A program made the position numbers and the translations under genes. Under the pieces are notes generated by a model, which had not been told where the DNA came from, ran no database searches, and saw only the letters and a list, made by a program, of their open reading frames with translations. Shown piece after piece: positions 1 to 61,527 of a DNA stretch of 64,000 bases; within the stretch, counting starts at the first letter, position 1, and each line of letters starts with the position of its first letter. The DNA comes from Candidatus Parcubacteria bacterium (GTDB lineage: Bacteria > Patescibacteriota > Minisyncoccia > UBA6257 > 2-01-FULL-56-20): assembly GCA_027450205.1 (NCBI GenBank), contig DAIDJL010000002.1, positions 205,007 through 269,006 of the forward strand. Direction: 5' to 3'.

Positions 1-163
1 CGGCCGTGATTTTATCAGTATCATTTTGCGCATCACTGAATTCAATCTTATCCCCAATATTTAAAAGCTTTCTTTTTTCGTCATAAAGACGACACTCAAT
101 GATTTTTGTGCCATTTTTAATCTTCTGGAAATATTCGGTTGCAAGTTTCATTGAGTGAATCAT
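1..163 (-). CDS. ASCH-domain protein (partial, C-terminus outside window)
   Basis: Reverse translation from ATG (revcomp of 161-163) gives MIHSMKLATEYFQKIKNGTKIIECRLYDEKRKLLNIGDKIEF..., ASCH-like; ORF runs off the window start. Confidence 0.45.
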   Translation of the reverse strand, partial: MIHSMKLATEYFQKIKNGTKIIECRLYDEKRKLLNIGDKIEFSDAQNDTDKITA

Positions 164-292
164 ATTAATCAAGTATAACAGTTGGTTCTACTATCATCTA
201 CTTGTAGTGTCAGGGCAAGTGGATACCGGTCGAACAAAAACGATTTTTGTCGATCTTCCGCAAGCCAACAAAACCAAGAGGTTCTACCCATA

Positions 293-427
293 CTAAGGGT
301 GTACTTTCTAGCCTGCGTTTTTACAGCATTAAAATCGATGAGCGGGTTAGTGGATGACGTCAGAACCTTTTTGATGGAAAAGCCCAGCAAATTTCACATT
401 TCAGATTTAATAAGCGAGAAATGTTGA
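293..427 (+). repeat. Conserved intergenic element, family 1 copy A (core GGATGACGTCAGAACCTTTTTGATGG)
   Basis: About 90 nt identical to 3188-3280, and the upstream roughly 45 nt is similar with paired substitutions. Followed by hairpin 438-461 (gaggctgg..ccagcctc). Confidence 0.7.
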
Positions 428-470
428 GATAAAATATGAGGCTGGAAATTAATCCAGCCTCCACAAGCAT

Positions 471-932
471 TCATGTTTTTGTCGGATCGGAGCATTCTTC
501 AGCATTCCTTGAAATCACGATGCCATATTGCTCCTTCATCAGCTCAAGGAAATTGCCTCCGGCCTCTTGCGCTACCGGACTGAAGTCTTCGTTATGCGTG
601 ATGGTGTAGACCGTACCGACGCACCATGCCCGCAGTACGGTAAGGGCAATTTCTAGGCGCGCGATATTGCCCGTGAAGCAGATGAACCGTCGCTTGCTTT
701 CCGGATTCTCGTGAATATGGATTGGCACATCCGGGTTGATCCTCTCCCACACCGGAGACGCCACAAGCTCTATTTCGTGATGGATTCCCCCGTGGAGTTT
801 GTTTTCAAACCCTAGGTAGAAAGCTGGATCGATCAACTGTTCTGACGGAGACTCGCTCCTGTGGATGCGAACGCGGAACGTATAGCTCTTGTCTCCCGCG
901 TCAATAACTACTATGCGATTTTGAGTTATCAC
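471..932 (-). CDS. hypothetical protein (153 aa)
   Basis: ORF with GTG start at 932, preceded by AAGGAG RBS at 8 nt spacing. Hairpin plus A/T run downstream at 438-461. Confidence 0.5.
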   Translation of the reverse strand: MITQNRIVVIDAGDKSYTFRVRIHRSESPSEQLIDPAFYLGFENKLHGGIHHEIELVASPVWERINPDVPIHIHENPESKRRFICFTGNIARLEIALTVLRAWCVGTVYTITHNEDFSPVAQEAGGNFLELMKEQYGIVISRNAEECSDPTKT

Positions 933-1042
933 GTCCTGCGCTCCTTCTTATGTGCCGTGCAAACAATAACACTTTACAATCCATCCGTCAAATGTTAGAA
1001 TGTGGGCGGATCCTAATAATCCAAAACGAAAGGAGGTGGCAC

Positions 1043-1612
1043 GTGAAAATCCAAGTCCGCTGGCCTAAGGAAAGCAACGTTTCACCCGATGACCTGATTA
1101 TCAGTTACTACAAGCCAGAATTCGTGTATGTCCACGAAAGGCTTTGGGCGGTGAACCTCAAGGTTTCCACGGTGCATGAGGCCTTGTTACACAGTTCATC
1201 CGTCATTTGGAAGATTCTAGAAGAAGGAGACCGCGTTCCGGGTCACCGCCCGTACGCAGTACGATCCTTCATCTCCGACGGCGAAAGCGATGAAGCCCTC
1301 GAGTTTCTGAACGAGTTCCTCACCTTGTACGACGGGAGAACTGGATATCTCGACGAAGCGATGAAGCAGGCGATCAACGACATCCAGCTAATCCCAGGCC
1401 CATTCTCGGACAAACATATCGGGTGGATTCGTCACGACCTGACTAATTGCCTGACGTTCGGAACCGAAGTCACACGCACCACCGGTGGGCAGTTTCGGAA
1501 GACGTCCATGCCGAAAACCCCCCAGCCGCATATCCGGCTCGTTTGGATTCGTGGTGAGCCACGTAAAGAGAGGAAGCTGTATACGAGAAAATCAAAAGCC
1601 GGTTCCACGTAA
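1043..1612 (+). CDS. hypothetical protein
   Basis: GTG at 1043 preceded by AGGAGG (1031-1036) at 6 nt spacing. Divergent from 471..932. Longer ORF-track start at 950 lacks an RBS. Confidence 0.5.
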   Translation: MKIQVRWPKESNVSPDDLIISYYKPEFVYVHERLWAVNLKVSTVHEALLHSSSVIWKILEEGDRVPGHRPYAVRSFISDGESDEALEFLNEFLTLYDGRTGYLDEAMKQAINDIQLIPGPFSDKHIGWIRHDLTNCLTFGTEVTRTTGGQFRKTSMPKTPQPHIRLVWIRGEPRKERKLYTRKSKAGST

Positions 1613-1784
1613 GGAGGAACGGGTCGAAGACTAACAAGTGCCTGATGCTAATCTCATTAGGCGCTTTTTTATCCGAATATCATCCATCCACCCCTAAGCC
1701 CCAACAAAATTCCACTCGGGCAAAAATAGCATTAACAGAATCGAATCTTTTTTAAAATCTATCCACCGGAAGCCTCTTGTGTTT

Positions 1785-1880
1785 GAGCGGGCTAGTGGAT
1801 GATGTTAGAACCTGCTTTAGAGAAAGTGCCAGCCAATTTGCGATTCCTGATTTAATGGCCGAGAAATGCTGAGATAAAAG
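1785..1880 (+). repeat. Conserved intergenic element, family 1 copy B (diverged, about 80% to copy A)
   Basis: gagcgggctagtggatgatgttagaacc...gagaaatgctgagataaaag aligns along the full length of copy A. Followed by hairpin 1883-1906 and a T-run. Confidence 0.65.
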
Positions 1881-1930
1881 TTTGACCCACCTCTTGCGAA
1901 GTGGGTCTTTTGTGCGAGCAGCAGTCCGAT

Positions 1931-2233
1931 TCATTGTTCGGCAGATACGCCGTGACGCAAATGCTTTGCATGTTCGAACAACTCGTCCTCAGGCGGTGCA
2001 CCATGTCGTAGGTTTTTAACATGTTCGAACACAATGCTGTTCTGAGGAGTCGCAGGGACTTCCCTGTGAAAGAGGGCGACGCCGATGATGGGCTTGCGTA
2101 CTGGATCACACATACTGCATGGTATCCATAGAGGGAGCGACATCAGCATGAACGCTCCGACCATCCACAGGCACTTGAGCGAGGCGTTAAGAAATCGTTC
2201 CATTTCGGAACCTCCATATTTGAAGAGCTTCAA
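1931..2233 (-). CDS. small membrane protein with internal LFEH.K.LRHG repeat
   Basis: 100-aa ORF, hydrophobic segment, duplicated FEHVKNLRHG/FEHAKHLRHG motif. Confidence 0.3.
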   Translation of the reverse strand: MKLFKYGGSEMERFLNASLKCLWMVGAFMLMSLPLWIPCSMCDPVRKPIIGVALFHREVPATPQNSIVFEHVKNLRHGAPPEDELFEHAKHLRHGVSAEQ

Positions 2234-2340
2234 TACTTCGCCATTATAGCACTTTACAAATATATAGTCAAATGGTACTATATGCCAAGAACCACAACAA
2301 TGGGAGGGCTATCCCAAAATAGCAGAAATGGAGTTGTCAT

Positions 2341-2997
2341 ATGACGACGAAGAAGCAGCGTGTTGTCGCGGACGATGTCCTTGGTCAAATTTCACGGAGA
2401 ACCTGGGATTTACAAAGACGAGTGATGGAAGGAACACTAGACCCACAACAAGTGCTTAACTCTTTGCAGTCATTCGCCGAGGGGCACCCGGTTGTTCCAA
2501 CTGACGCACCGCCATTTATTCTTGGCCAGCGCGTTTATGAGATCGAGCAGCCGCCTAGCGGTGTCGGAATTCTTGCATTTGCCCAGAGTTCGCAATTCGA
2601 GGTCTATGGTGCCCATTTAGCGGATCAATGGCCGAAAACTCAACGGGTTCTCGACGCGAGCCAAACCAGCAAGGTGCGAGTTGCGTATTTTCAGCAAACT
2701 TTCATTGCTCGTACTGCATTCTCGATTGTCCAAGATAGTGGGATCGAATGCGCTGACGCATGGGAATTGGTTGCCTTCTGTAAGCAGTCAAGTTTCATTG
2801 CGGCACGCGATTTCGGATTCCATAGTCCCGTGAGGTTTGTTTCGGCAGTCGGAATAGAAACCGGCGATGACTTTTTGGGTGATAGGTATATCTATCTTGA
2901 GTCCAGCACCCACGCGAGGAAATGGGGATTCAATAACGGATGCGAAGGGGCATTTTTCAAGATCAATGCCGGTGATTACGTTCTTGTTCACGCTTAG
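2341..2997 (+). CDS. hypothetical protein (218 aa)
   Basis: ORF with GGAG RBS 6 nt upstream of ATG; no recognised domain. Confidence 0.5.
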   Translation: MTTKKQRVVADDVLGQISRRTWDLQRRVMEGTLDPQQVLNSLQSFAEGHPVVPTDAPPFILGQRVYEIEQPPSGVGILAFAQSSQFEVYGAHLADQWPKTQRVLDASQTSKVRVAYFQQTFIARTAFSIVQDSGIECADAWELVAFCKQSSFIAARDFGFHSPVRFVSAVGIETGDDFLGDRYIYLESSTHARKWGFNNGCEGAFFKINAGDYVLVHA

Positions 2998-3143
2998 CAC
3001 GTGGGCTACTCATCTGAGTAGTTAACATTCCAGGCAGTCTTTGCATTATGCGGAGGCTGCCTGATTTTTTTACCCAACCGCACTACTCACTATTGTTTAA
3101 AAGATATTCTGAGTATCGCCCGTAGGTAAATAGGTTCGACCCG

Positions 3144-3280
3144 CACTAAGGGTGCACGATCCAGCCCGCATGATTGCAGGCCTAAAATTTAGGAGCGGGT
3201 TAGTGGATGACGTCAGAACCTTTTTGATGGAAAAGCCCAGCAAATTTCACATTTCAGATTTAATAAGCGAGAAATGTTGA
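3144..3280 (+). repeat. Conserved intergenic element, family 1 copy C
   Basis: 3188-3280 identical to 338-427. Upstream part cactaagggtgcac...gcaggcctaaaattt aligns to copy A with paired changes. Followed by hairpin 3293-3323. Confidence 0.7.
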
Positions 3281-3340
3281 TCATTAAAAGAATGGGCAGC
3301 AACCTCGTAATGAGGTCGCTGCCCTTCCTAGGTAAAGTGC

Positions 3341-3856
3341 CTAGACGTCCGTCTTTGATTCTGCGAGATAATCCTTGAAACTTCCTCTTACACCGAAATG
3401 TGCTTCTGCGGCAAGGGAATGAGCATCCCAGAATATCCGCTTCAAGTCTTTGATGATATCTCCAAGGTTGATAAACTCGGCGAGAGTCACATCAGCGTCG
3501 AGGGAAGGTTGTTTTGCAAGCTGTGCTTGTTGTTCGCAAACTCCCCAGAGCCGACGAGCGCGACGGGTAAGTTCATCAGTGATTGCTGCCTGGATATAAC
3601 TGTTGTTAGCGGACATGGGCCAGCCGAACACCAATTCGAAGCGGCCGCGTATATCGTTCCACCGTCGACTTTCCATCTTGCGGATTGCCAGTGTGATCAT
3701 CGCCTCGATAATAACTACGATGGTGACGGCAAGAATCATATAGAGAACAAACCGACCAAAAGAGATTTTGTCGGCATAGAGGAGATAGGCACAATACATT
3801 CCGATTATGCCACTCACAATGCGTCCGGGCCATACAACCTTTTTATCCAGCACCAT
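3341..3856 (-). CDS. membrane protein (two TM helices plus cytoplasmic domain)
   Basis: ATG at 3856 with GGAGAG RBS; hydrophobic helices in the N-terminal third. Confidence 0.5.
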   Translation of the reverse strand: MVLDKKVVWPGRIVSGIIGMYCAYLLYADKISFGRFVLYMILAVTIVVIIEAMITLAIRKMESRRWNDIRGRFELVFGWPMSANNSYIQAAITDELTRRARRLWGVCEQQAQLAKQPSLDADVTLAEFINLGDIIKDLKRIFWDAHSLAAEAHFGVRGSFKDYLAESKTDV

Positions 3857-3980
3857 AACATCCTGCTTTCTCTCCGCTCTCCGGAGTTGTTGAAATTGTT
3901 CGGCTGCTCTACAGCGGAACTGCGCACATCATATCATTTGACAATCCATCCGTCAAGAGGTAGAATGTGGGCAGTCGTTC

Positions 3981-4241
3981 ATGAGGTTTGAAATGACATG
4001 TGGCATCGTTGTTCCTCGACAGGAAGAAATCGTGGGCCATCGTCAAGATGGCTATTCGGCGGAATGTATTCTCAAGTCGGGAAATCACTCTCGGCATGTG
4101 ATAAAAATGCCGGAGGGAAAATTCTTTGCGTGGGAAGATGATTGGGACTGCGATTGCTGCGCGCCTGACGAAGACGATCGTTGTTATTGTTTTTGGGAAA
4201 TAAGCGAACAGGAGGCAATCAATCTCGGTGCCTCTTTGTGA
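3981..4241 (+). CDS. small Cys-rich acidic protein
   Basis: 86-aa ORF with CDCC..C.C cluster; weak support. Confidence 0.3.
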   Translation: MRFEMTCGIVVPRQEEIVGHRQDGYSAECILKSGNHSRHVIKMPEGKFFAWEDDWDCDCCAPDEDDRCYCFWEISEQEAINLGASL

Positions 4242-4517
4242 GCCTCGCGCTTCGGTGCGGGGCTTTTCTTATTTAAATATTGCGACGGCGATTGATACAA
4301 ATAAAGCAAGTATTGAAATCGCAAGTGTTACTAGGGAAAGATTTTTTTGGAAGCCTAGGGCGTAGCGATTTATCTCAAGCTGTAGCCGATTTGAGTGATA
4401 CAGCCAAAGGCGACACTTCGTGCATTCAGCAACTCCTGGGCCGCTTCGCTGATCGTAAGAAACTACCCTCCAATCGTGATCGCAATCAATTTGACGATCA
4501 GCCATGATTATCGGTCG

Positions 4518-4892
4518 CTAGCTAGTAGTCTTCGATTTCAAATCAATCATAAAGAGCTTGCCGAACTGAGGATCTTCTATCTCTATTGGAGAATATTTCC
4601 CCGCATATTTATTTAGATCTATGGAGTAGGCCTCAATGAATGACCACGCAGAAAAATATGCGCCTTTTTCATCTGCGCGTTTTTTCAATCTGAAAGTCCC
4701 GTCGGTTTCTTGCTCTAAGAGCTTGATGCCGATTTTCTGTTCGGCCTTGTCGAAGTAAAGTTTTACAGCGGCATATCGGTCAATTTCATATCGATGATGC
4801 ATGCCGGAGCTCAAACCAAAACCGCCAGATTTGTTGATGCTTACCTGGGGAGTGAATTTCCCTTTTCTCTTAGTGAATTCTTCAAAAGCCAT
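4518..4892 (-). CDS. hypothetical protein (124 aa)
   Basis: ORF; start next to an AT-rich region with TAATAAT near the ATG (possibly leaderless). Confidence 0.4.
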   Translation of the reverse strand: MAFEEFTKRKGKFTPQVSINKSGGFGLSSGMHHRYEIDRYAAVKLYFDKAEQKIGIKLLEQETDGTFRLKKRADEKGAYFSAWSFIEAYSIDLNKYAGKYSPIEIEDPQFGKLFMIDLKSKTTS

Positions 4893-4979
4893 TGTAAGAA
4901 TTATTAGTTTTTTTGTGTGAATACCTAGGGTTGTGGTATCCTAGGAAACATTCTAAACTTAAAGGGTGTGGATAAATTA

Positions 4980-5008
4980 TTGACAGTCAGTCCATTTTCA
5001 TTTAAAAT
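4980..5008 (+). promoter_or_regulatory. sigma70-type promoter (TTGACA-17-TAAAAT)
   Basis: TTGACA 4980-4985, 17 nt spacer, TAAAAT 5003-5008. Predicted TSS about 5016, right at the start of the long stem. Confidence 0.5.
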
Positions 5009-5016
5009 CTGTTCCT

Positions 5017-5140
5017 GAGCTTAGAAGCTCAATCTTGTGCCCGGCAGGGGGGACGATCCCCTTTTCCATAGTTCAAGGCTATGTGTCCTACCCACCGTAG
5101 ACGAGCCGGGCATAAGATTGAGTTTCTAAGCTCTTTTTTG
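5017..5140 (+). ncRNA. candidate small structured RNA (29-bp closing stem, three internal hairpins, U-tract end); alternatively a MITE-like element
   Basis: Arms 5017-5045 and 5105-5133 are reverse complements with two C-to-T changes that give G.U pairs. Inner hairpins ggggg/cccc and catag/ctatg. T6 at 5134-5139. No ORF. Confidence 0.35.
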
Positions 5141-5469
5141 ATATTCTTAGGGAAGTATACCATAAAATTCTAGCAAGTAATACCCCCAGAGATTTACCCT
5201 ATCTGATAATATCAAATGGTATCCGCTTGTCAAATGTCTGTTTTCTCACAGCATTTTGCTATGCAAATTGAATATGTGTCTAAGATACGATAAGTTTACT
5301 GCTTTATATTTTAAACATCTGTTCAATTTAATTCGGCGTTTATTCTTCAAATTCACGTGTTAATTTCCGAGTTCTTCCCCGCCTTTGTGCAATCTATCAT
5401 TTCAACCAGCGGACAGGGCAGAGACGGGTATAGGCGAAAAGAACCGCAGATTCACGTTTTATGCGGGGA

Positions 5470-5499
5470 TTGACAGATAAGCCAATTAAGGTGTATAAT
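5470..5499 (+). promoter_or_regulatory. sigma70 promoter (TTGACA-18-TATAAT) with a 110 nt leader containing a 9-bp hairpin
   Basis: Consensus hexamers at 5470-5475 and 5494-5499. Leader hairpin ggccgtagcc/ggctacggc at 5528-5574. AAGGAG RBS before ATG 5617. Confidence 0.55.
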
Positions 5500-5616
5500 A
5501 TAGTTGTTCTTTGAAATGGCGAATAATGGCCGTAGCCAAAAGGCATTGGAATGTCGATGCTTTCTGGCTACGGCTACGGATAGTAGTCCCTCTGGCAGAA
5601 AAAAGGAGAAAACACC

Positions 5617-6294
5617 ATGGCTAACACGGTGAAGACCTTTGATCGTCAGACCGCGCGGTTCCTTGCGGTCATCGCTGAAAACCTTCCGGAAATGCCTGCA
5701 GTATGTATGCAGATTTGGAGCGAACAACCCAAGCGAATCCAGGAAGTCTTACTAAAGGCTTTCGAGCCTCTTGTCCGCATCCCCCTGTGGTGGCACGAGA
5801 CAGTGAAGCCGGTCGTTCACGATGCCCGGAGTTGGAAAGAAGTGTTGCTGCAGCGCGGATTCACGATCAGTGATGAAGCACAAGCGATGCTTGAGAACGT
5901 TCTGCTCGTCCCGTTTCCCGAGACGGAGTACACTCAGGCCAGCGCGCATTCTTTCGGGTACGGCTTCGACGAGAAAAATCCACCTTCTCGCGCCGACTAT
6001 TACCGACGTGCGAAGATGTTGGGGCTCGAGCCAATTTCAGTTCAGGCGGCTCTCCAAGTTCTTCTGGAGGATCGCTACTCCAATCCCCCGAAGAATAATC
6101 TCAAGAAATTCCCTGAGCAGATTATCTTCGTTCTTGGGACAGAGCCCATCTCTGTCATCGACAAGGACGGCGCGACAACGAAGAAACTGTTTGTGTTCGA
6201 AAATTATGGCGGGCACAATTCGCTTCACGCCATGGATGTCGAGAGCAACAAGTTCCTTTATACACTCCTTGCCATACACAAGGATGAGCAGTAA
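5617..6294 (+). CDS. hypothetical protein (225 aa)
   Basis: Strong promoter plus RBS; ORF followed by a hairpin and T-run near 6330-6360. Confidence 0.6.
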   Translation: MANTVKTFDRQTARFLAVIAENLPEMPAVCMQIWSEQPKRIQEVLLKAFEPLVRIPLWWHETVKPVVHDARSWKEVLLQRGFTISDEAQAMLENVLLVPFPETEYTQASAHSFGYGFDEKNPPSRADYYRRAKMLGLEPISVQAALQVLLEDRYSNPPKNNLKKFPEQIIFVLGTEPISVIDKDGATTKKLFVFENYGGHNSLHAMDVESNKFLYTLLAIHKDEQ

Positions 6295-6775
6295 ACCATC
6301 AACCCATTATCGAAAAAGAGGAAAACCCTCTGCTTCGGTAGTGGGTTTTCTCTTTTTTATAATCCGGCCCCACAGTGCCACTCACTATATCTCCCCTGCA
6401 GACAATAGTGAGCGAGATGGGAGGGTCTTTAGAATTTCTTTACGAAATCTTTAACTTTTCTTTACCGCGAGGGCTACCAAATAAGCGTCCGCTTTGCTAT
6501 TTCCTCAATACTGTCCGCGAGCGGGTCGAACGTATAGCTCGCGCTTTTCTGCGGATTCTTGCGTATCGCGTATGGCGAGACAGGAAGGTTGTGGGCTGAA
6601 CGGATGTATTGGTCTACCCATATCATGCTCCGGCCATTTGCGTAAAAGCTTTTTTCAATTGAAAGATATTGTTCAGCTTCATTGATATCGATTGGGGTTC
6701 TCATGGGGTTTGGGTATCTTATATAATTACATTTTATGCATAAGTGTCGATGTTTTGTGCTGCCAAGGCCCACGT

Positions 6776-7240
6776 CTAAAGCATCCCTCTTTTTTTGATA
6801 TCCTTCCACCCGTGCTTTACCACGTTGCCATTTCGGTCGACGGAAAAGATGTATAGGCCAAGTCGTTTCGCTGCTTGCCATGGAATCCTGCGCAATGCGA
6901 TAGTTGCCGATGTTTCTGGCATTGCAATCCCGTAGTAGTTCGGCTCGAACGTCGTCATCCTCGTAACAATCTGGCCAAGGACGGCAACAAACGAACCATC
7001 ATCAGCGGAGCTTGCGTAGTGTGCTGACGAACCGCCTTTCACTTCGACTACAAAGTAGCGGGTATGCGGTGGTCTGCTGCTTCGGACGCGGATATCGACC
7101 CCTTTCTGATGGAGCGCAACCCTGCGGAGGTTATAGCCGAACCCATTGCGGAACAGCCAGTCCACCATTCTGTCGCCGACGAATTGCTCGGATTTTTTGT
7201 AATCCGCATGACGTACTCTTTTCGCTTTTGATTTTGCCAT
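6776..7240 (-). CDS. putative PD-(D/E)xK nuclease-fold protein
   Basis: 154 aa; motif GVDIRVRS...YFVVEVKGG resembles the D...(D/E)xK restriction-endonuclease-like core. Confidence 0.35.
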   Translation of the reverse strand: MAKSKAKRVRHADYKKSEQFVGDRMVDWLFRNGFGYNLRRVALHQKGVDIRVRSSRPPHTRYFVVEVKGGSSAHYASSADDGSFVAVLGQIVTRMTTFEPNYYGIAMPETSATIALRRIPWQAAKRLGLYIFSVDRNGNVVKHGWKDIKKRGML

Positions 7241-7245
7241 AGTTG

Positions 7246-7578
7246 TTAAAGACTAAGACAGAAGGTTGTTGGACTTCCACATGAGGCCTGCGGCGCGGGA
7301 GTCTCCCACGAGACGCCATTTGGCAGAGTGCTGGAAGTGAATATGGTGCCACTATTGGTATTGTCGGATGGATCTTCTAGCGTCGCTGCTAATACGTAGA
7401 CTGTTCCGCTCGCATCGGTGGCGTATGTATAATGGCGACCTTGGCTAGCTAGTGGATCGTTAGGGATGGTAATGCTGGAGAAATTACCGCCCGCGTTCGT
7501 TATCTTAGTTTGCAAATCCTGCCACGAGGTGATGCCGGTCGGGTACTGATTGTATTGGTTGTAATACACCTCAAGCAC
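7246..7578 (-). pseudogene. type IV pilin-like protein lacking the N-terminal signal and hydrophobic helix (probable remnant)
   Basis: R.A..DL.....L..YY...N.YP motif typical of pilins. In-frame upstream sequence runs into tRNA-Gly with no start codon or hydrophobic helix. GTG start only. Confidence 0.3.
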
Positions 7579-7717
7579 GGTTTGGGTCGTTAGAAGGTCG
7601 TTAATCCGCTGTGCGTCTCTTGCCCCCGTCGAGCAGGAAGTGGCAAGGTTCGAACACGGAGAAACACCTGATGAATCAGGCGGCCTAGAAGGATTCCATG
7701 AAATAAGTCCTAACTTG

Positions 7718-7788
7718 AGCGGGTAACGGGAGTCGAACCCGTGACTTCACCTTGGAAGGGTGACGTAATACCGTTATACAATACCCGC
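7718..7788 (-). tRNA. tRNA-Gly (anticodon TCC)
   Basis: Manual fold: acceptor GCGGGTA/TACCCGC, anticodon loop CTTCCAA, T-arm ACGGG-TTCGACT-CCCGT, discriminator T. CCA not encoded. Confidence 0.8.
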
Positions 7789-44631: not shown

Positions 44632-45903
44632 CTACCCTTCAAAAGCCTTTTTTAATATAGAGAAGACCACGAGTGCTGTAAATGCGATCACGGCAGCAAG
44701 CGCAAAAGCGTAGGACGGATCGATCGTCCACAGCCGTCCGGCAATGACGGATGCGGGCAGGTAGATAAGCCCGGTGACGAAGTTATAGAGGCCAATCGCC
44801 GAACCGCGTCGCGTGGGCTCCAAATCGGCAATGAACGCCTTGCTTTGTGCCTCATCGATGGCGTAGAACACGCCGAAGACGATAAAGAGGACGATAATCT
44901 CCCACTTGGCGAACGCGAACATGAACCCGGATGCCATTACGGCGTAGATGAGATAGCTCAGCATGATGACCCACGTGCGACCGATCCGATCGCCAAGCCT
45001 TCCCATTGGAATCGAAGCAATAACGAACGCGACATTGAACAGCGCATACAGAAGGATGACGTCCGCCACGGAAAAGCCGACAAGGTATGCTTTGAGGAGC
45101 AGGAATCCGAAGCTGAAATAGGCAAGCGAAAAGATGCTCGCGGGCACAAGATACCGCTTGAACGAGGGCGATAGCATCTTCCATGACACGAACATATTTT
45201 CTCGCTCATGCGGCGGGCCGGGGCGCTCTTTCATCACAAGGAGCACGACGACCGCGAGCGTGGCCACGATCGCCGCTCCGATAAAGAGAATATGGAAGCT
45301 ATGAAGGCTCTGCCCAAGCCAGGCAAAAAGAGCGAACGCCAAGAGCGGCCCCGCCACGGCGCCTGCCTTGTCCATCGCTTTATGCACACCGAACGAATAC
45401 CCGCGATCCGCTTCAGATGCAACTTCGGCAAGCCACGCATCCCGCGGCGGCCCGCGGAAGCTTTTCCCGAGGCGCTCGACGATGCGGAAGAGCGCGAGCG
45501 ACGATATCGAATTCGCCACGACGAGAAAGAATTTCGCGAGCGTGGAGAACCCATACCCCACGGCCGCAAGTGATTTTCGCTTGCCGCTGTGGTCGGATAG
45601 CCATCCCGAAAGATAATCGAGGGATGACGCCGAAAAATCCGCAAGTCCCTCCACGAGGCCGAGCAATGCTGCCGAGGCACCGGCGAATACAGTGAAGAAC
45701 ACCGCGAATACCGAAAATATTGCCTCCGAGCTCACGTCAGTGAGAAAACTCACGAGCCCGAGCCGTATCACGTCTGGATGAACCCCGAAACGGTGGCTAC
45801 CTTCATTCGTAGGCATATCGTCAATTATATCCGAGATTAATCGGTTGGGTATGCAAGCGGGTCGAGGTTGGAAATATAAGGCTCCAGTTGCCTTTTTGCG
45901 CAC
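44632..45903 (-). CDS. MFS transporter
   Basis: 12 TM; GRLGDRIGR (MFS loop 2-3 signature); 423 aa (start may be 45816). Confidence 0.8.
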   Translation of the reverse strand: MRKKATGALYFQPRPACIPNRLISDIIDDMPTNEGSHRFGVHPDVIRLGLVSFLTDVSSEAIFSVFAVFFTVFAGASAALLGLVEGLADFSASSLDYLSGWLSDHSGKRKSLAAVGYGFSTLAKFFLVVANSISSLALFRIVERLGKSFRGPPRDAWLAEVASEADRGYSFGVHKAMDKAGAVAGPLLAFALFAWLGQSLHSFHILFIGAAIVATLAVVVLLVMKERPGPPHERENMFVSWKMLSPSFKRYLVPASIFSLAYFSFGFLLLKAYLVGFSVADVILLYALFNVAFVIASIPMGRLGDRIGRTWVIMLSYLIYAVMASGFMFAFAKWEIIVLFIVFGVFYAIDEAQSKAFIADLEPTRRGSAIGLYNFVTGLIYLPASVIAGRLWTIDPSYAFALAAVIAFTALVVFSILKKAFEG

Positions 45904-46195
45904 GCAGGCGCTACACTTAACCCATAACTGAATATGATGGGGCGCAAGCCTCGGAGCCTAAACCTTCACCGGCATGGCTCATAAGACTCAAACCAGAATA
46001 CTGAACCCCGCGTTCAGCAACTCTGGTTTGAGCCGTACTGGGAAACTGGTACGGGACCGAAAGGTCTAGCTGACACGGGGTTCAGTGTTATTTCTTTCCG
46101 TGTCGGCTATCAAAGGCCGGCATTTTTGTTTATCAATTCGTGATCAAAATCAATCACAGAAAGAAAATTAAGGAGGATAGAAAATAACCAATACT

Positions 46196-54456: not shown

Positions 54457-54653
54457 ACTATCCACTTTCATTATGCACTATTGATGGAAAATACCAATTG
54501 CGCCATAATAACAAGGCACACAGTCATCGGGTTCGCGGGCTTTTGTATTCAAAAAGGGGTAGCTCCGTACAAGCGTCCGCGAGGATGATTGTGTGCAACG
54601 GGGCTATCCCTTTTTGCGTATAAAGGCCGGAAAATAAAAACCAATAAATTACA

Positions 54654-56252
54654 ATGGAAAAATCAGCAGAGAAAATTAAATACTTCATGTACGCTCGCAA
54701 ATCGTCCGAGAGCGAGGATCGGCAGATGGCGTCTATCGAATCCCAGATTGACGAGCTGAAAAAGCTTGCCAAAGAAAACAATCTCGAGATCGTCGAGGTG
54801 TTTTCCGAATCAAAGTCGGCGAAAGCGCCGGGTCGCACGGAGTTCAGGAAAATGATCGAGCGCATTCAGGAAGGTGAAGTACAAGGTGTCATCTGCTGGA
54901 AGCTGAACCGGCTGGCGAGGAATCCTGTTGATGGCGGGGAAATCAGCTGGCTGCTTCAGCAGAGTGTCATCAAGCACATCCAGACGTATGGGCGGAGCTA
55001 TTACCCGACCGATAACGTCTTAATGATGAGCGTGGAGTTCGGCATGGCGAACCAATTTGTGAAGGACTTGAGCGTGGATACGAAGCGCGGCATGCGGGCA
55101 AAGGCGGAGCGAGGATGGTGTCCCGGTCCGGCTCCCGTCGGATATCTCCATAATCCCATTAAGAAACAGGGCGAAAAGGAGGTTCTTTCCGATGAAAAGC
55201 GTTTTGGCATCGTCTCAAAATGCTGGGCGATGATGCTCATGGGAGCGCATACGGTGCCACAGGTGTGGGAGGTTGCGGTGAACCGGTGGGGCCTTACCGG
55301 TCGCATGGGGAAGAAGCTCAGTTTGAGCAACATGTATGCTTTGTTTGCTAATCCCTTCTATTGCGGAGAGTTTGAGTATCCTCTTGGAAGCGGTATCTGG
55401 CATCAGGGGAAGCACGAGCCGATGATTACCCGGAAAGAATTCGAGCGCGTGCAGACCATTATGGGCTGGGGCAACAAGTCACGGCGGAAGACGCATGACA
55501 TTTCCATGCGCGGCCCGATCCTGTGTGGGGAGTGCGGCGCAATGATTACAGCCGAGGAGAAAGTCAAAATCCAAAAGAATGGAAATCGCCATGAATACAC
55601 TTACTACCACTGTACTGGGCGAAAAAACAAGAATTGCTTGCAGAAGCGCATCCGCATTGAAGAGAAGGAGTTAGAGCGACAGGTTAAGGAAATCTTTTCA
55701 AAGGTTGAAATCCCGCAGGAGTTTTATGAGTGGGCCATGGATGTATTACGCGAGTCGAATGAGGCGGAGTCGACAACTCGTGCGAAGATCACCGACAGTC
55801 AGCGGGCAGAATACGATCGTAGCGTGAAGATGATCGACGCCATCATCGATATGCGGGCGCGTGGCGAAATCACCGAGGAAGAGTTTACGCGACGCAAGAC
55901 ATCGCTGCTTACGGAAAAACATCACTTACAAGGGCTTATTAACGATGCCGACAAAGGTGTAGATGATTGGCTCGCAACGGCCGACAAGTATTTCAACTTC
56001 GCGGCGAATGCCAAGCGGAAGTTCGAAAACGGCACATCCGACGAGATCCGGGAGCTACTAACCCTCTTAGGTTCGGACCTCCTCTTAACGCAAGGAAAAC
56101 TCAGTGTTTCCTTGGCCGAACCACTCATCGTGATCGAAAAATTAGCGCCGGGAGCACGACTCATAAATGAGAGGTTTGGACCTGCAAAAAATGCAGAAGA
56201 TATAAAGGAATTAAGAACGTTATACGCTCAAAATTCAACAAGGGGTGCCTAA
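54654..56252 (+). CDS. large serine recombinase (resolvase catalytic domain plus recombinase and zinc-ribbon domains)
   Basis: N-terminal YARKSSESEDRQMASIESQ (catalytic Ser region), recombinase domain, Cys4 CGECG...C..C, C-terminal coiled coil; stop codon lies inside tRNA-His. Confidence 0.85.
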   Translation: MEKSAEKIKYFMYARKSSESEDRQMASIESQIDELKKLAKENNLEIVEVFSESKSAKAPGRTEFRKMIERIQEGEVQGVICWKLNRLARNPVDGGEISWLLQQSVIKHIQTYGRSYYPTDNVLMMSVEFGMANQFVKDLSVDTKRGMRAKAERGWCPGPAPVGYLHNPIKKQGEKEVLSDEKRFGIVSKCWAMMLMGAHTVPQVWEVAVNRWGLTGRMGKKLSLSNMYALFANPFYCGEFEYPLGSGIWHQGKHEPMITRKEFERVQTIMGWGNKSRRKTHDISMRGPILCGECGAMITAEEKVKIQKNGNRHEYTYYHCTGRKNKNCLQKRIRIEEKELERQVKEIFSKVEIPQEFYEWAMDVLRESNEAESTTRAKITDSQRAEYDRSVKMIDAIIDMRARGEITEEEFTRRKTSLLTEKHHLQGLINDADKGVDDWLATADKYFNFAANAKRKFENGTSDEIRELLTLLGSDLLLTQGKLSVSLAEPLIVIEKLAPGARLINERFGPAKNAEDIKELRTLYAQNSTRGA

Positions 56253-61334: not shown

Positions 61335-61463
61335 CGCTTTTGCAAGAGCAGGGCACATCTTTCGAAAGGACGGCGTTCCGGTCTGCTGACCGGCCGCCTT
61401 GGCGCTCGGCACCTTCATGCCTCCGCGGCACCTTTCAAAAGATGTGCCCTGCTCTTGCAAAAG
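61335..61463. repeat. 34-bp near-perfect inverted repeat (one mismatch) around a 61-nt spacer holding a smaller hairpin
   Basis: Arm 61335-61368 gcttttgcaagagcagggcacatctttcgaaagg vs arm 61430-61463 cctttcaaaagatgtgccctgctcttgcaaaagc. Inner ccggtc-tgc-tgaccgg. Confidence 0.85.
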
Positions 61464-61527
61464 CGAAGACCTTCTACATATTTTGGGCTGGAATTTTGCT
61501 TCGGTTTCTGCTAAAATATATCCATAT

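Follow-up and report, generated by a model that had tools for sequence, protein, structure and literature searches.

Is the long hairpin that can be drawn at positions 5017-5133 of this DNA the product of a small-RNA gene, or is it a palindrome that exists at the DNA level and merely lies between a promoter and a T-run? We addressed this question in a 64-kb window, i.e., the whole stretch of 64,000 nucleotides that was analysed. The homologues of its ribosomal protein S1, 75-95% identical, are named Candidatus Paceibacterota or Minisyncoccia, so that the organism can be placed in the Patescibacteria. A sequence-only reading of the locus had proposed a small RNA, driven by its own promoter and ended by its own terminator, and had retained a MITE as the alternative. 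It had placed this element in an AT-rich gap of roughly 700 bp, and the gap is indeed 724 bp long (4893-5616), with a GC content of 38% outside the element vs. 53% within it. The features on which the argument relies are the following.

4269-4892, minus strand: operon for proteins of 124 and 78 aa, from the ORF list (the 124-aa gene is 4518-4892)
4980-5008, plus strand: promoter P1, TTGACA-17-TAAAAT, matching the consensus at 11 of 12 positions
5017-5045, plus strand: 5' arm of the closing helix, from the repeat search (G5017 is the putative transcription start)
5046-5104, plus strand: interior, with three predicted 7-bp hairpins at a four-way junction in the minimum-energy and centroid folds
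5105-5133, plus strand: 3' arm, completing the helix, in which T5113 and T5123 pair with G
5134-5139, plus strand: U6 tract (TTTTTT) directly abutting the stem, forming a terminator with the stem base
5206-5233, minus strand (read 5233-5206): promoter P2 facing P1 (TTGACA-16-TATTAT, -10 extended by TG), matching at 11 of 12 positions
5470-5499, plus strand: promoter P3 of a 225-aa gene, matching at 12 of 12 positions

Folding of the Element and Strand Preference

The repeat search delimits an inverted repeat whose two arms of 29 nt are complementary at 27 positions (93%) and are separated by 59 nt, giving a whole hairpin of 117 nt. When the arms were searched for with three mismatches tolerated, only these two were found in the 64 kb, and none of 100 shuffles gave a match. 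The two exceptions to complementarity, G5027/T5123 and G5037/T5113, are the G.U-making changes that had already been noticed, the rest of the arms being fully complementary. Both of them read as G.U in an RNA of the plus strand and as A.C in an RNA of the minus strand. The predicted folds differ in the same direction: the plus-strand RNA reaches -73.2 kcal/mol (z = -10.5) with 51 pairs, 7 of them G.U, while the minus-strand RNA reaches -61 to -63 kcal/mol (-62.7) with 43 pairs, no G.U, and the two A.C mismatches in its long helix.

The three small hairpins that had been described in the interior are found in the predicted fold, but their stability is no better than that of shuffles (z = -0.73). 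Indeed, the 59-nt interior taken alone folds at -17.4 kcal/mol vs. -15.4 +/- 2.8 kcal/mol for the shuffles, 44 out of 200 being at least as stable. The folding signal resides wholly in the arms, and the three interior hairpins, which may be real, carry no evidence.

This interior, together with the inner 7 bp of the arms, has the size of a tRNA, and one can imagine a tRNA-like RNA or a degenerate tRNA, i.e., a cloverleaf of 73-75 nt released from a long processing stem. Its middle hairpin can show the 7-nt loop UUCAAGG on the plus strand, and ARAGORN makes a weak tRNA-Gln(UUG) call at 5037-5111 on the minus strand. However, this call sits on the strand bearing the A.C mismatches, neither a T-loop (TTCGA) nor a D-loop consensus is present, the "T arm" is separated from the acceptor stem by extra bases, and the interior folds no better than chance. 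The tRNA reading is largely refuted because the Rfam tRNA covariance model gives no match to the element at E <= 10, when seven real tRNAs score 54-70 bits, and we hold it for extremely improbable.

Several other identities were considered for the palindrome. The ends of an integron attC site were not recognized, since the palindrome starts with GAGCTTAG... and finishes with ...CTAAGCTC, without R''/R' cores (RYYYAAC ... GTTRRRY). A retron msr-msd was rejected as well: Pfam, PHROG, and PADLOC detected no reverse transcriptase in the 11 flanking ORFs, and the interior is too short. As for a replication origin, neither tandem repeats nor iterons were found. Both arms terminate in 14-bp sub-palindromes, GAGCTTAGAAGCTC (5017-5030) and GAGTTTCTAAGCTC (5120-5133), whose centres are 103 bp apart. 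The first of these spans positions +1 to +14 of P1 and could be an operator; this idea was set aside, the sub-palindrome GAGCTTNNAAGCTC of each arm being found nowhere else in the window.

Signals for Transcription of the Plus Strand

The near-consensus promoter announced at 4980-5008 was recovered by the promoter scan with 11 of 12 matching positions. It ends 8 nt ahead of the 5' arm, which places a recognisable promoter at the proper distance from the 5' end of a small-RNA gene. Its -10 hexamer ends at 5008; the usual spacing of 7 nt would put the start at C5015, but from 5013 to 5017 no purine is met before G5017. Judging from these positions, P1 would start transcription at G5017 or within about 3 nt of it. 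Promoters of such quality are far more numerous than expected. In the 64-kb window, eight reach at least 11/12 when first-order Markov simulations predict 0.33, and three of them are in the 724-bp gap, for an expectation of 0.023. Four of the seven others (+3938, +5470, -2271, and -10703) are located directly upstream of listed ORFs, namely 86-aa, 225-aa, and 100-aa genes and ftsH, which indicates that the consensus is predictive in this genome.

At the other end, the T6 run that had been reported at 5134-5139 does directly follow the last paired base. The stem base, GAGC/GCUC, followed by U6 has the form of an intrinsic terminator, and this on the plus strand only. T6 runs start at 4908, 4909, and 5134 in the gap, the last one being the only T6 within about 200 nt of the element. 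On the minus strand, no U-tract is found at the stem, and the first U-run (UUUU) comes 9 nt past the hairpin, in AGGAACAGAUUUUAAAU. Taken together, three independent indications of orientation, P1, the one-sided U-tract, and the wobble asymmetry (7 G.U vs. none), fit an RNA of the plus strand. This RNA would fold into the 117-nt hairpin with its 29-bp closing helix, and the helix base together with U6 would end transcription, leading to a predicted product of about 120 nt.

It had also been stated that the element contains no ORF. This is right inasmuch as no plausible coding capacity was found, but mechanical ORFs of 30-44 aa do cross the element. None of them is preceded by a ribosome-binding site, and they are buried in the helix.

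A Convergent Promoter and a Possible Antisense Partner

P2, which the sequence-only reading had overlooked, faces P1 and points into the element. P1 and P2 are thus face to face, while P2 and P3 are back to back; this three-promoter layout of the 724-bp gap is reminiscent of a mobile-element switch region. The start of P2 would lie near 5199, with transcription reading leftward through the element, and the terminator scan found no minus-strand terminator between P2 and the 124-aa gene. The P1 and P2 transcripts would then overlap over about 180 nt, with perfect complementarity throughout the hairpin. A cis-antisense arrangement calls for overlapping complementary transcripts from convergent promoters; P2, with its 11/12 match, would be the partner of P1, both transcripts being putative. 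Action in cis appears the most probable: the small RNA, or P1 transcription itself, could oppose the P2 transcripts heading to the 124-aa/78-aa operon, either by formation of a duplex and its cleavage by RNase III or by transcriptional interference from head-on transcription. Both the 29-bp helix and the sense/antisense duplex would be natural substrates of RNase III.

The search for targets in trans, in which each hairpin and the whole interior were confronted with both strands of the window using RNAduplex, returned only their own antisense strand. This strand is the sole strong partner of the interior in the window. The putative P2 transcript is the only concrete target. The antisense mechanism specifically is nevertheless advanced as a tentative proposal, with distinctly less confidence than the existence of the RNA. 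The link between the RNA and the operon is a putative one. The proximal region of the 124-aa gene in the window has a weak -10, TAGAAT (4955-4950), and no usable -35, so P2 may contribute to the expression of the operon. On the other hand, proximal promoters with a good -35 precede the homologues of the 124-aa gene, whose leaders are short and lack a Shine-Dalgarno sequence. These homologues possess no leader comparable to that of P2, which suggests that the operon need not depend on P2.

The convergent promoters also bring to mind a pair resembling type I toxin-antitoxin systems, in which P2 would express a minus-strand ORF of 44 codons (5163-5029) and the plus-strand RNA would be its antisense antitoxin. 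This ATG-initiated ORF, downstream of P2, overlaps the RNA almost completely, and complete-overlap pairs such as Ibs/Sib exist. However, the 44-aa peptide is basic and hydrophilic, contrary to a membrane toxin, and has no ribosome-binding site. Its ORF runs through the 29-bp helix, and any palindrome makes mirror ORFs on both strands. No homologue was found with which coding constraint could be compared. Such a pair seems to us highly improbable.

The Island and the Neighboring Genes

The element belongs to a region of distinct composition. From position 1 to 7716, the GC content of the window is 44-50% vs. 51-59% over the next several kb, and the low-GC region ends exactly at the 3' end of a tRNA-Gly gene (7717-7788, minus strand), the pattern expected of an integrated island. 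No integrase was found in the part of the island which is inside the window, and the short island genes gave no informative Pfam, PHROG, or PADLOC match (11 flanking ORFs tested). The island is built from promoter-gene-terminator modules, including repeated promoter modules and a small module repeated three times. A promoter module of 49 nt (TTGACA/TTTACA ... TAGAAT) is found at 959-1007 and 3924-3972, the two copies being 82% identical and each lying upstream of a different plus-strand island gene. The other module, of about 100-150 nt, occurs at 276-427, ~1785-1875, and 3129-3280; it carries a conserved ORF of 25-29 codons (...SGLVDDVRTFLMEKPSKFHISDLISEKC*) with synonymous differences between copies, and a terminator-like hairpin stands after every copy. 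The module may represent a gene for a small peptide, or else the copied 3' end of a gene, marking the boundaries of cassettes or attachment sites.

On the left of the element, the 124-aa protein has about 20 homologues, all in islands of Patescibacteria, next to genes for restriction-modification, DUF3892, and DUF3800, and no relatives of the family were found in IMG/VR. Its AlphaFold model, a confident one (pLDDT 85), presents only a weak likeness to B3 and DNA-binding pseudobarrel domains, with a Foldseek probability of about 0.55 and a TM of 0.43-0.47; a sequence search of the PDB found no match. On the right, the 225-aa gene has one homologue (locus L001), with 81% identity. In this sole homologue the 12/12 promoter is kept, as is a leader hairpin (5529-5574; 298-349 in L001) with at least one compensatory change, from GCCGTAGCC/GGCTACGGC to GCCATAGCC/GGCTATGGC. 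To the left, the homology with other loci reaches no further than the start codon of the 124-aa gene; to the right, it resumes at P3. These limits define a separate module of 573 bp (4893-5465), comprising P1, the element, P2, and an AT-rich stretch, which was found nowhere else among the loci compared.

The proximity of the 225-aa gene suggests another use for the stem and its U6, whose geometry is that of an intrinsic terminator: the element could be a regulated leader or attenuator, at which P1 transcripts would normally end but from which they would continue, under some condition, through the AT-rich region into this gene, or an insulator between leftward and rightward modules. P1 and P3 have the stretch ATTGACAG...CCAxTT in common (family D1), and the modular construction of the island goes in the same direction. 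Against attenuation, about 480 nt and the strong opposing P2 separate the terminator from the 225-aa gene, which is served by a 12/12 promoter and a conserved leader hairpin of its own. Moreover, the only homologous locus possesses this promoter and this leader but no upstream hairpin element, and for a 29-bp stem at -73 kcal/mol there is no plausible antiterminator as alternative fold. We consider the leader, attenuator, or insulator improbable.

Search for Relatives and Copies

An Rfam comparison, which had been suggested as a check, gave no family match for the element; the whole window was compared at the gathering threshold, and 4850-5650 at E <= 10. The set comprised 4227 models, including those for tRNA, 6S, Y RNA, SRP, C4, pRNA, ribozymes, and DUF3800 motifs, and nothing in it overlaps 5017-5139 even at E <= 10. 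A BLAST of 4900-5620 against phage and plasmid records found no match. Words taken from the arms, the junction, and the hairpins retrieved nothing related in IMG/VR, in 185,579 GTDB species genomes, or in the JGI metagenomes, these scans of public collections being exact-word searches which diverged homologues could escape. One 18-mer had eight genome matches, when about 17 would roughly be expected by chance. Of these matches, the longest two fall in an unrelated intergenic region in Alphaproteobacteria, just upstream of a short ORF judged by eye to be LysR-like, with no wider similarity.

Whether the element is present at other loci had likewise been raised as a check. It is a single copy in the 64 kb. 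BLAST revealed no second one in the window or among 23 loci retrieved for comparison, and a covariance model based on the element gave the same result; these loci are those around homologues of the 124-aa gene (L002-L010, L019, and L020), of the 225-aa gene (L001), and of rpsA. It is absent from all 13 distinct homologous neighbor loci. In these 23 loci and in the exact-word public scans, neither conservation nor covariation in relatives was found, and the literature searches brought up nothing on the element.

A Second Palindrome of Similar Geometry

Scanning the whole window for long inverted repeats brought out only one other outlier, 61335-61369/61431-61465. With 35-nt arms that are 97% complementary and a 61-nt interior, its geometry is near the 29/59/29 of the element. 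This palindrome is flanked by rpsA and a divergent gene, the rpsA -35 (TTGCAA) being inside the proximal arm, and it presents neither a promoter reading in nor a T-run after it. In relatives with a 94-95% identical S1 (L021-L030), the rpsA-proximal arm is present while the distal arm and the interior are absent, which implies that one arm was duplicated or lost at the DNA level. To judge from this comparison, palindromes of such size and spacing can thus emerge or degenerate in this lineage as DNA structures, and need not be RNA genes. As a side observation, rpsA is apparently leaderless, its -10 TATAAT (61323-61318) ending 7-8 nt before the ATG (61310). This layout is kept in relatives, and the 124-aa family has likewise short leaders without Shine-Dalgarno.

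The existence of this second palindrome, devoid of transcription signals, lowers the prior that the hairpin of the element was shaped by an RNA function. The symmetry of the arms had been presented as that of an RNA rather than of DNA. The wobbles, the promoter, and the U-tract do agree on the plus strand, but the palindrome at 61335-61465 leaves room for an origin at the DNA level. According to this alternative, the element would be a MITE or a local inverted duplication located by chance between a promoter and a T-run, and its RNA would have no dedicated function. Its 117 bp and its near-perfect 29-bp terminal repeats suit bacterial MITEs, its interior is not significantly structured, and the second palindrome, of almost the same geometry and devoid of promoter and T-run, is reduced to its rpsA-proximal arm in relatives. 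Several observations are opposed to it. No target-site duplication is present, the flanks ...GTTCCT and TTTTTTGA... being devoid of direct repeat even with the boundary shifted by 1-2 nt. The element is unrepeated in the 64 kb, and its arm words are absent from the species genomes, metagenomes, and viral sequences scanned for exact words, so that the MITE suggested by the sequence-only reading received no positive support from copies or insertion traces. In addition, the two palindromes are unrelated in sequence (score 15 vs. a shuffle mean of 15.7). Finally, an 11/12 promoter 8 nt upstream, a T6 at the stem, and seven wobbles out of seven favoring one strand would very unlikely be brought together by chance. 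The second palindrome does not account for P1, the U-tract, or the wobble bias of the element. We regard the DNA-level explanation as unlikely, but as deserving more weight than an attenuator or insulator.

The two palindromes could also represent a class of Paceibacterota defined by geometry, made either of long-stem RNAs, which RNase III would process into a tRNA-sized head and a short duplex, or of hairpins built by a dedicated mechanism of inverted duplication with a fixed spacer (~60 nt). In the element, this structure would have been captured as a small-RNA gene. We judge such a class quite improbable, a little more so than the attenuator or insulator.

Other Putative Structured RNAs in the Window

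Two other candidate RNA features were observed in the window. A 91-nt hairpin with 31-nt arms (54538-54628) is rich in G.U on the plus strand, where it folds at -54.9 vs. -33.1 kcal/mol for the other strand. It stands in what appears to be the 5' UTR of a gene for a large serine recombinase (ATG at 54654), with a weak promoter upstream (54481-54509). A LOOT RNA (Rfam RF03000) was detected at 45955-46067 with 70.7 bits, above the gathering score of 46.4, in a 292-nt gap between the ORF of an MFS-like transporter (44632-45903, minus strand) and the next plus-strand ORF (46196).

Comparison with Known Systems

RNA-OUT/RNA-IN of IS10 (Tn10) is the type example of cis-antisense hairpin RNAs produced from face-to-face promoters; RNA-OUT, of about 70 nt, overlaps the start codon of the transposase mRNA. 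The element has in common with this system a strong promoter, a short, very stable, and largely double-stranded hairpin as predicted RNA, a second promoter facing the first, transcripts that would be perfectly complementary over their overlap, and a mobile-element setting. It differs by its predicted size (about 120 nt), its branched head, its expected overlap of about 180 nt, the absence of a transposase, and its position, some 125 nt or more ahead of the closest start codon. In Sib/Ibs type I toxin-antitoxin systems, a structured RNA of ~110-140 nt is encoded opposite a short transcript made by a convergent promoter, and is entirely antisense to it. The element is likewise predicted to give a structured RNA antisense to the transcript of a convergent promoter. 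On the contrary, the 44-codon ORF on its opposite strand is hydrophilic and lacks a ribosome-binding site, its locus is unrepeated in the window, and it has no sequence or Rfam match.

C4 and CI of phages P1, P7, and P4 are small structured antisense RNAs with a closing stem, whose loops pair with a nearby transcript. They are processed from longer leaders and are not promoter-to-terminator units. Like them, the element is located in the regulatory region of mobile DNA and is predicted to give a small structured RNA whose hairpin loops are borne by a closing stem, but it has no Rfam match (4850-5650, E <= 10), and sites complementary to its loops are found on its own antisense strand only. MITEs such as Correia of Neisseria, ERIC, and RUP measure ~100-150 bp, have terminal inverted repeats of ~26-30 bp, and are intergenic and near promoters; their transcripts are long hairpins with dsRNA stems that RNase III could cut. 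The element is like them in size, terminal repeats, intergenic site near a promoter, and dsRNA stem; unlike them, it has no further copy in the 64 kb, no target-site duplication, and no relative in the collections searched.

Conclusions

The best explanation is that the element is a stand-alone non-coding transcription unit of the plus strand, expected to produce a very stable candidate hairpin RNA of about 120 nt, and we give this proposal about an even chance. The sequence signals, their rarity, and their agreement on one strand are direct observations, whereas transcription, the ends of the RNA, its antisense pairing, and its target are inferred. The initial idea of a small RNA with its own promoter and terminator is strengthened by the agreement of P1, the U-tract, and the wobbles on one strand, and weakened on other points: no conservation or covariation was found in the collections and loci searched, and the head is unsupported statistically. 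As a sequence feature, the element is real and well formed, and it is an orphan. It fits a known kind, the small RNA running from promoter to terminator, here within a mobile island and probably cis-antisense, and requires no new category. It raises no question of long standing and would not surprise a specialist. Almost nothing is known, however, about regulatory RNAs in Patescibacteria (CPR). If expressed, the RNA would be a clean example from this group, combining a consensus promoter with a defined terminator and a convergent promoter in an island of unknown genes, and it would offer a handle on how this mobile island is regulated.
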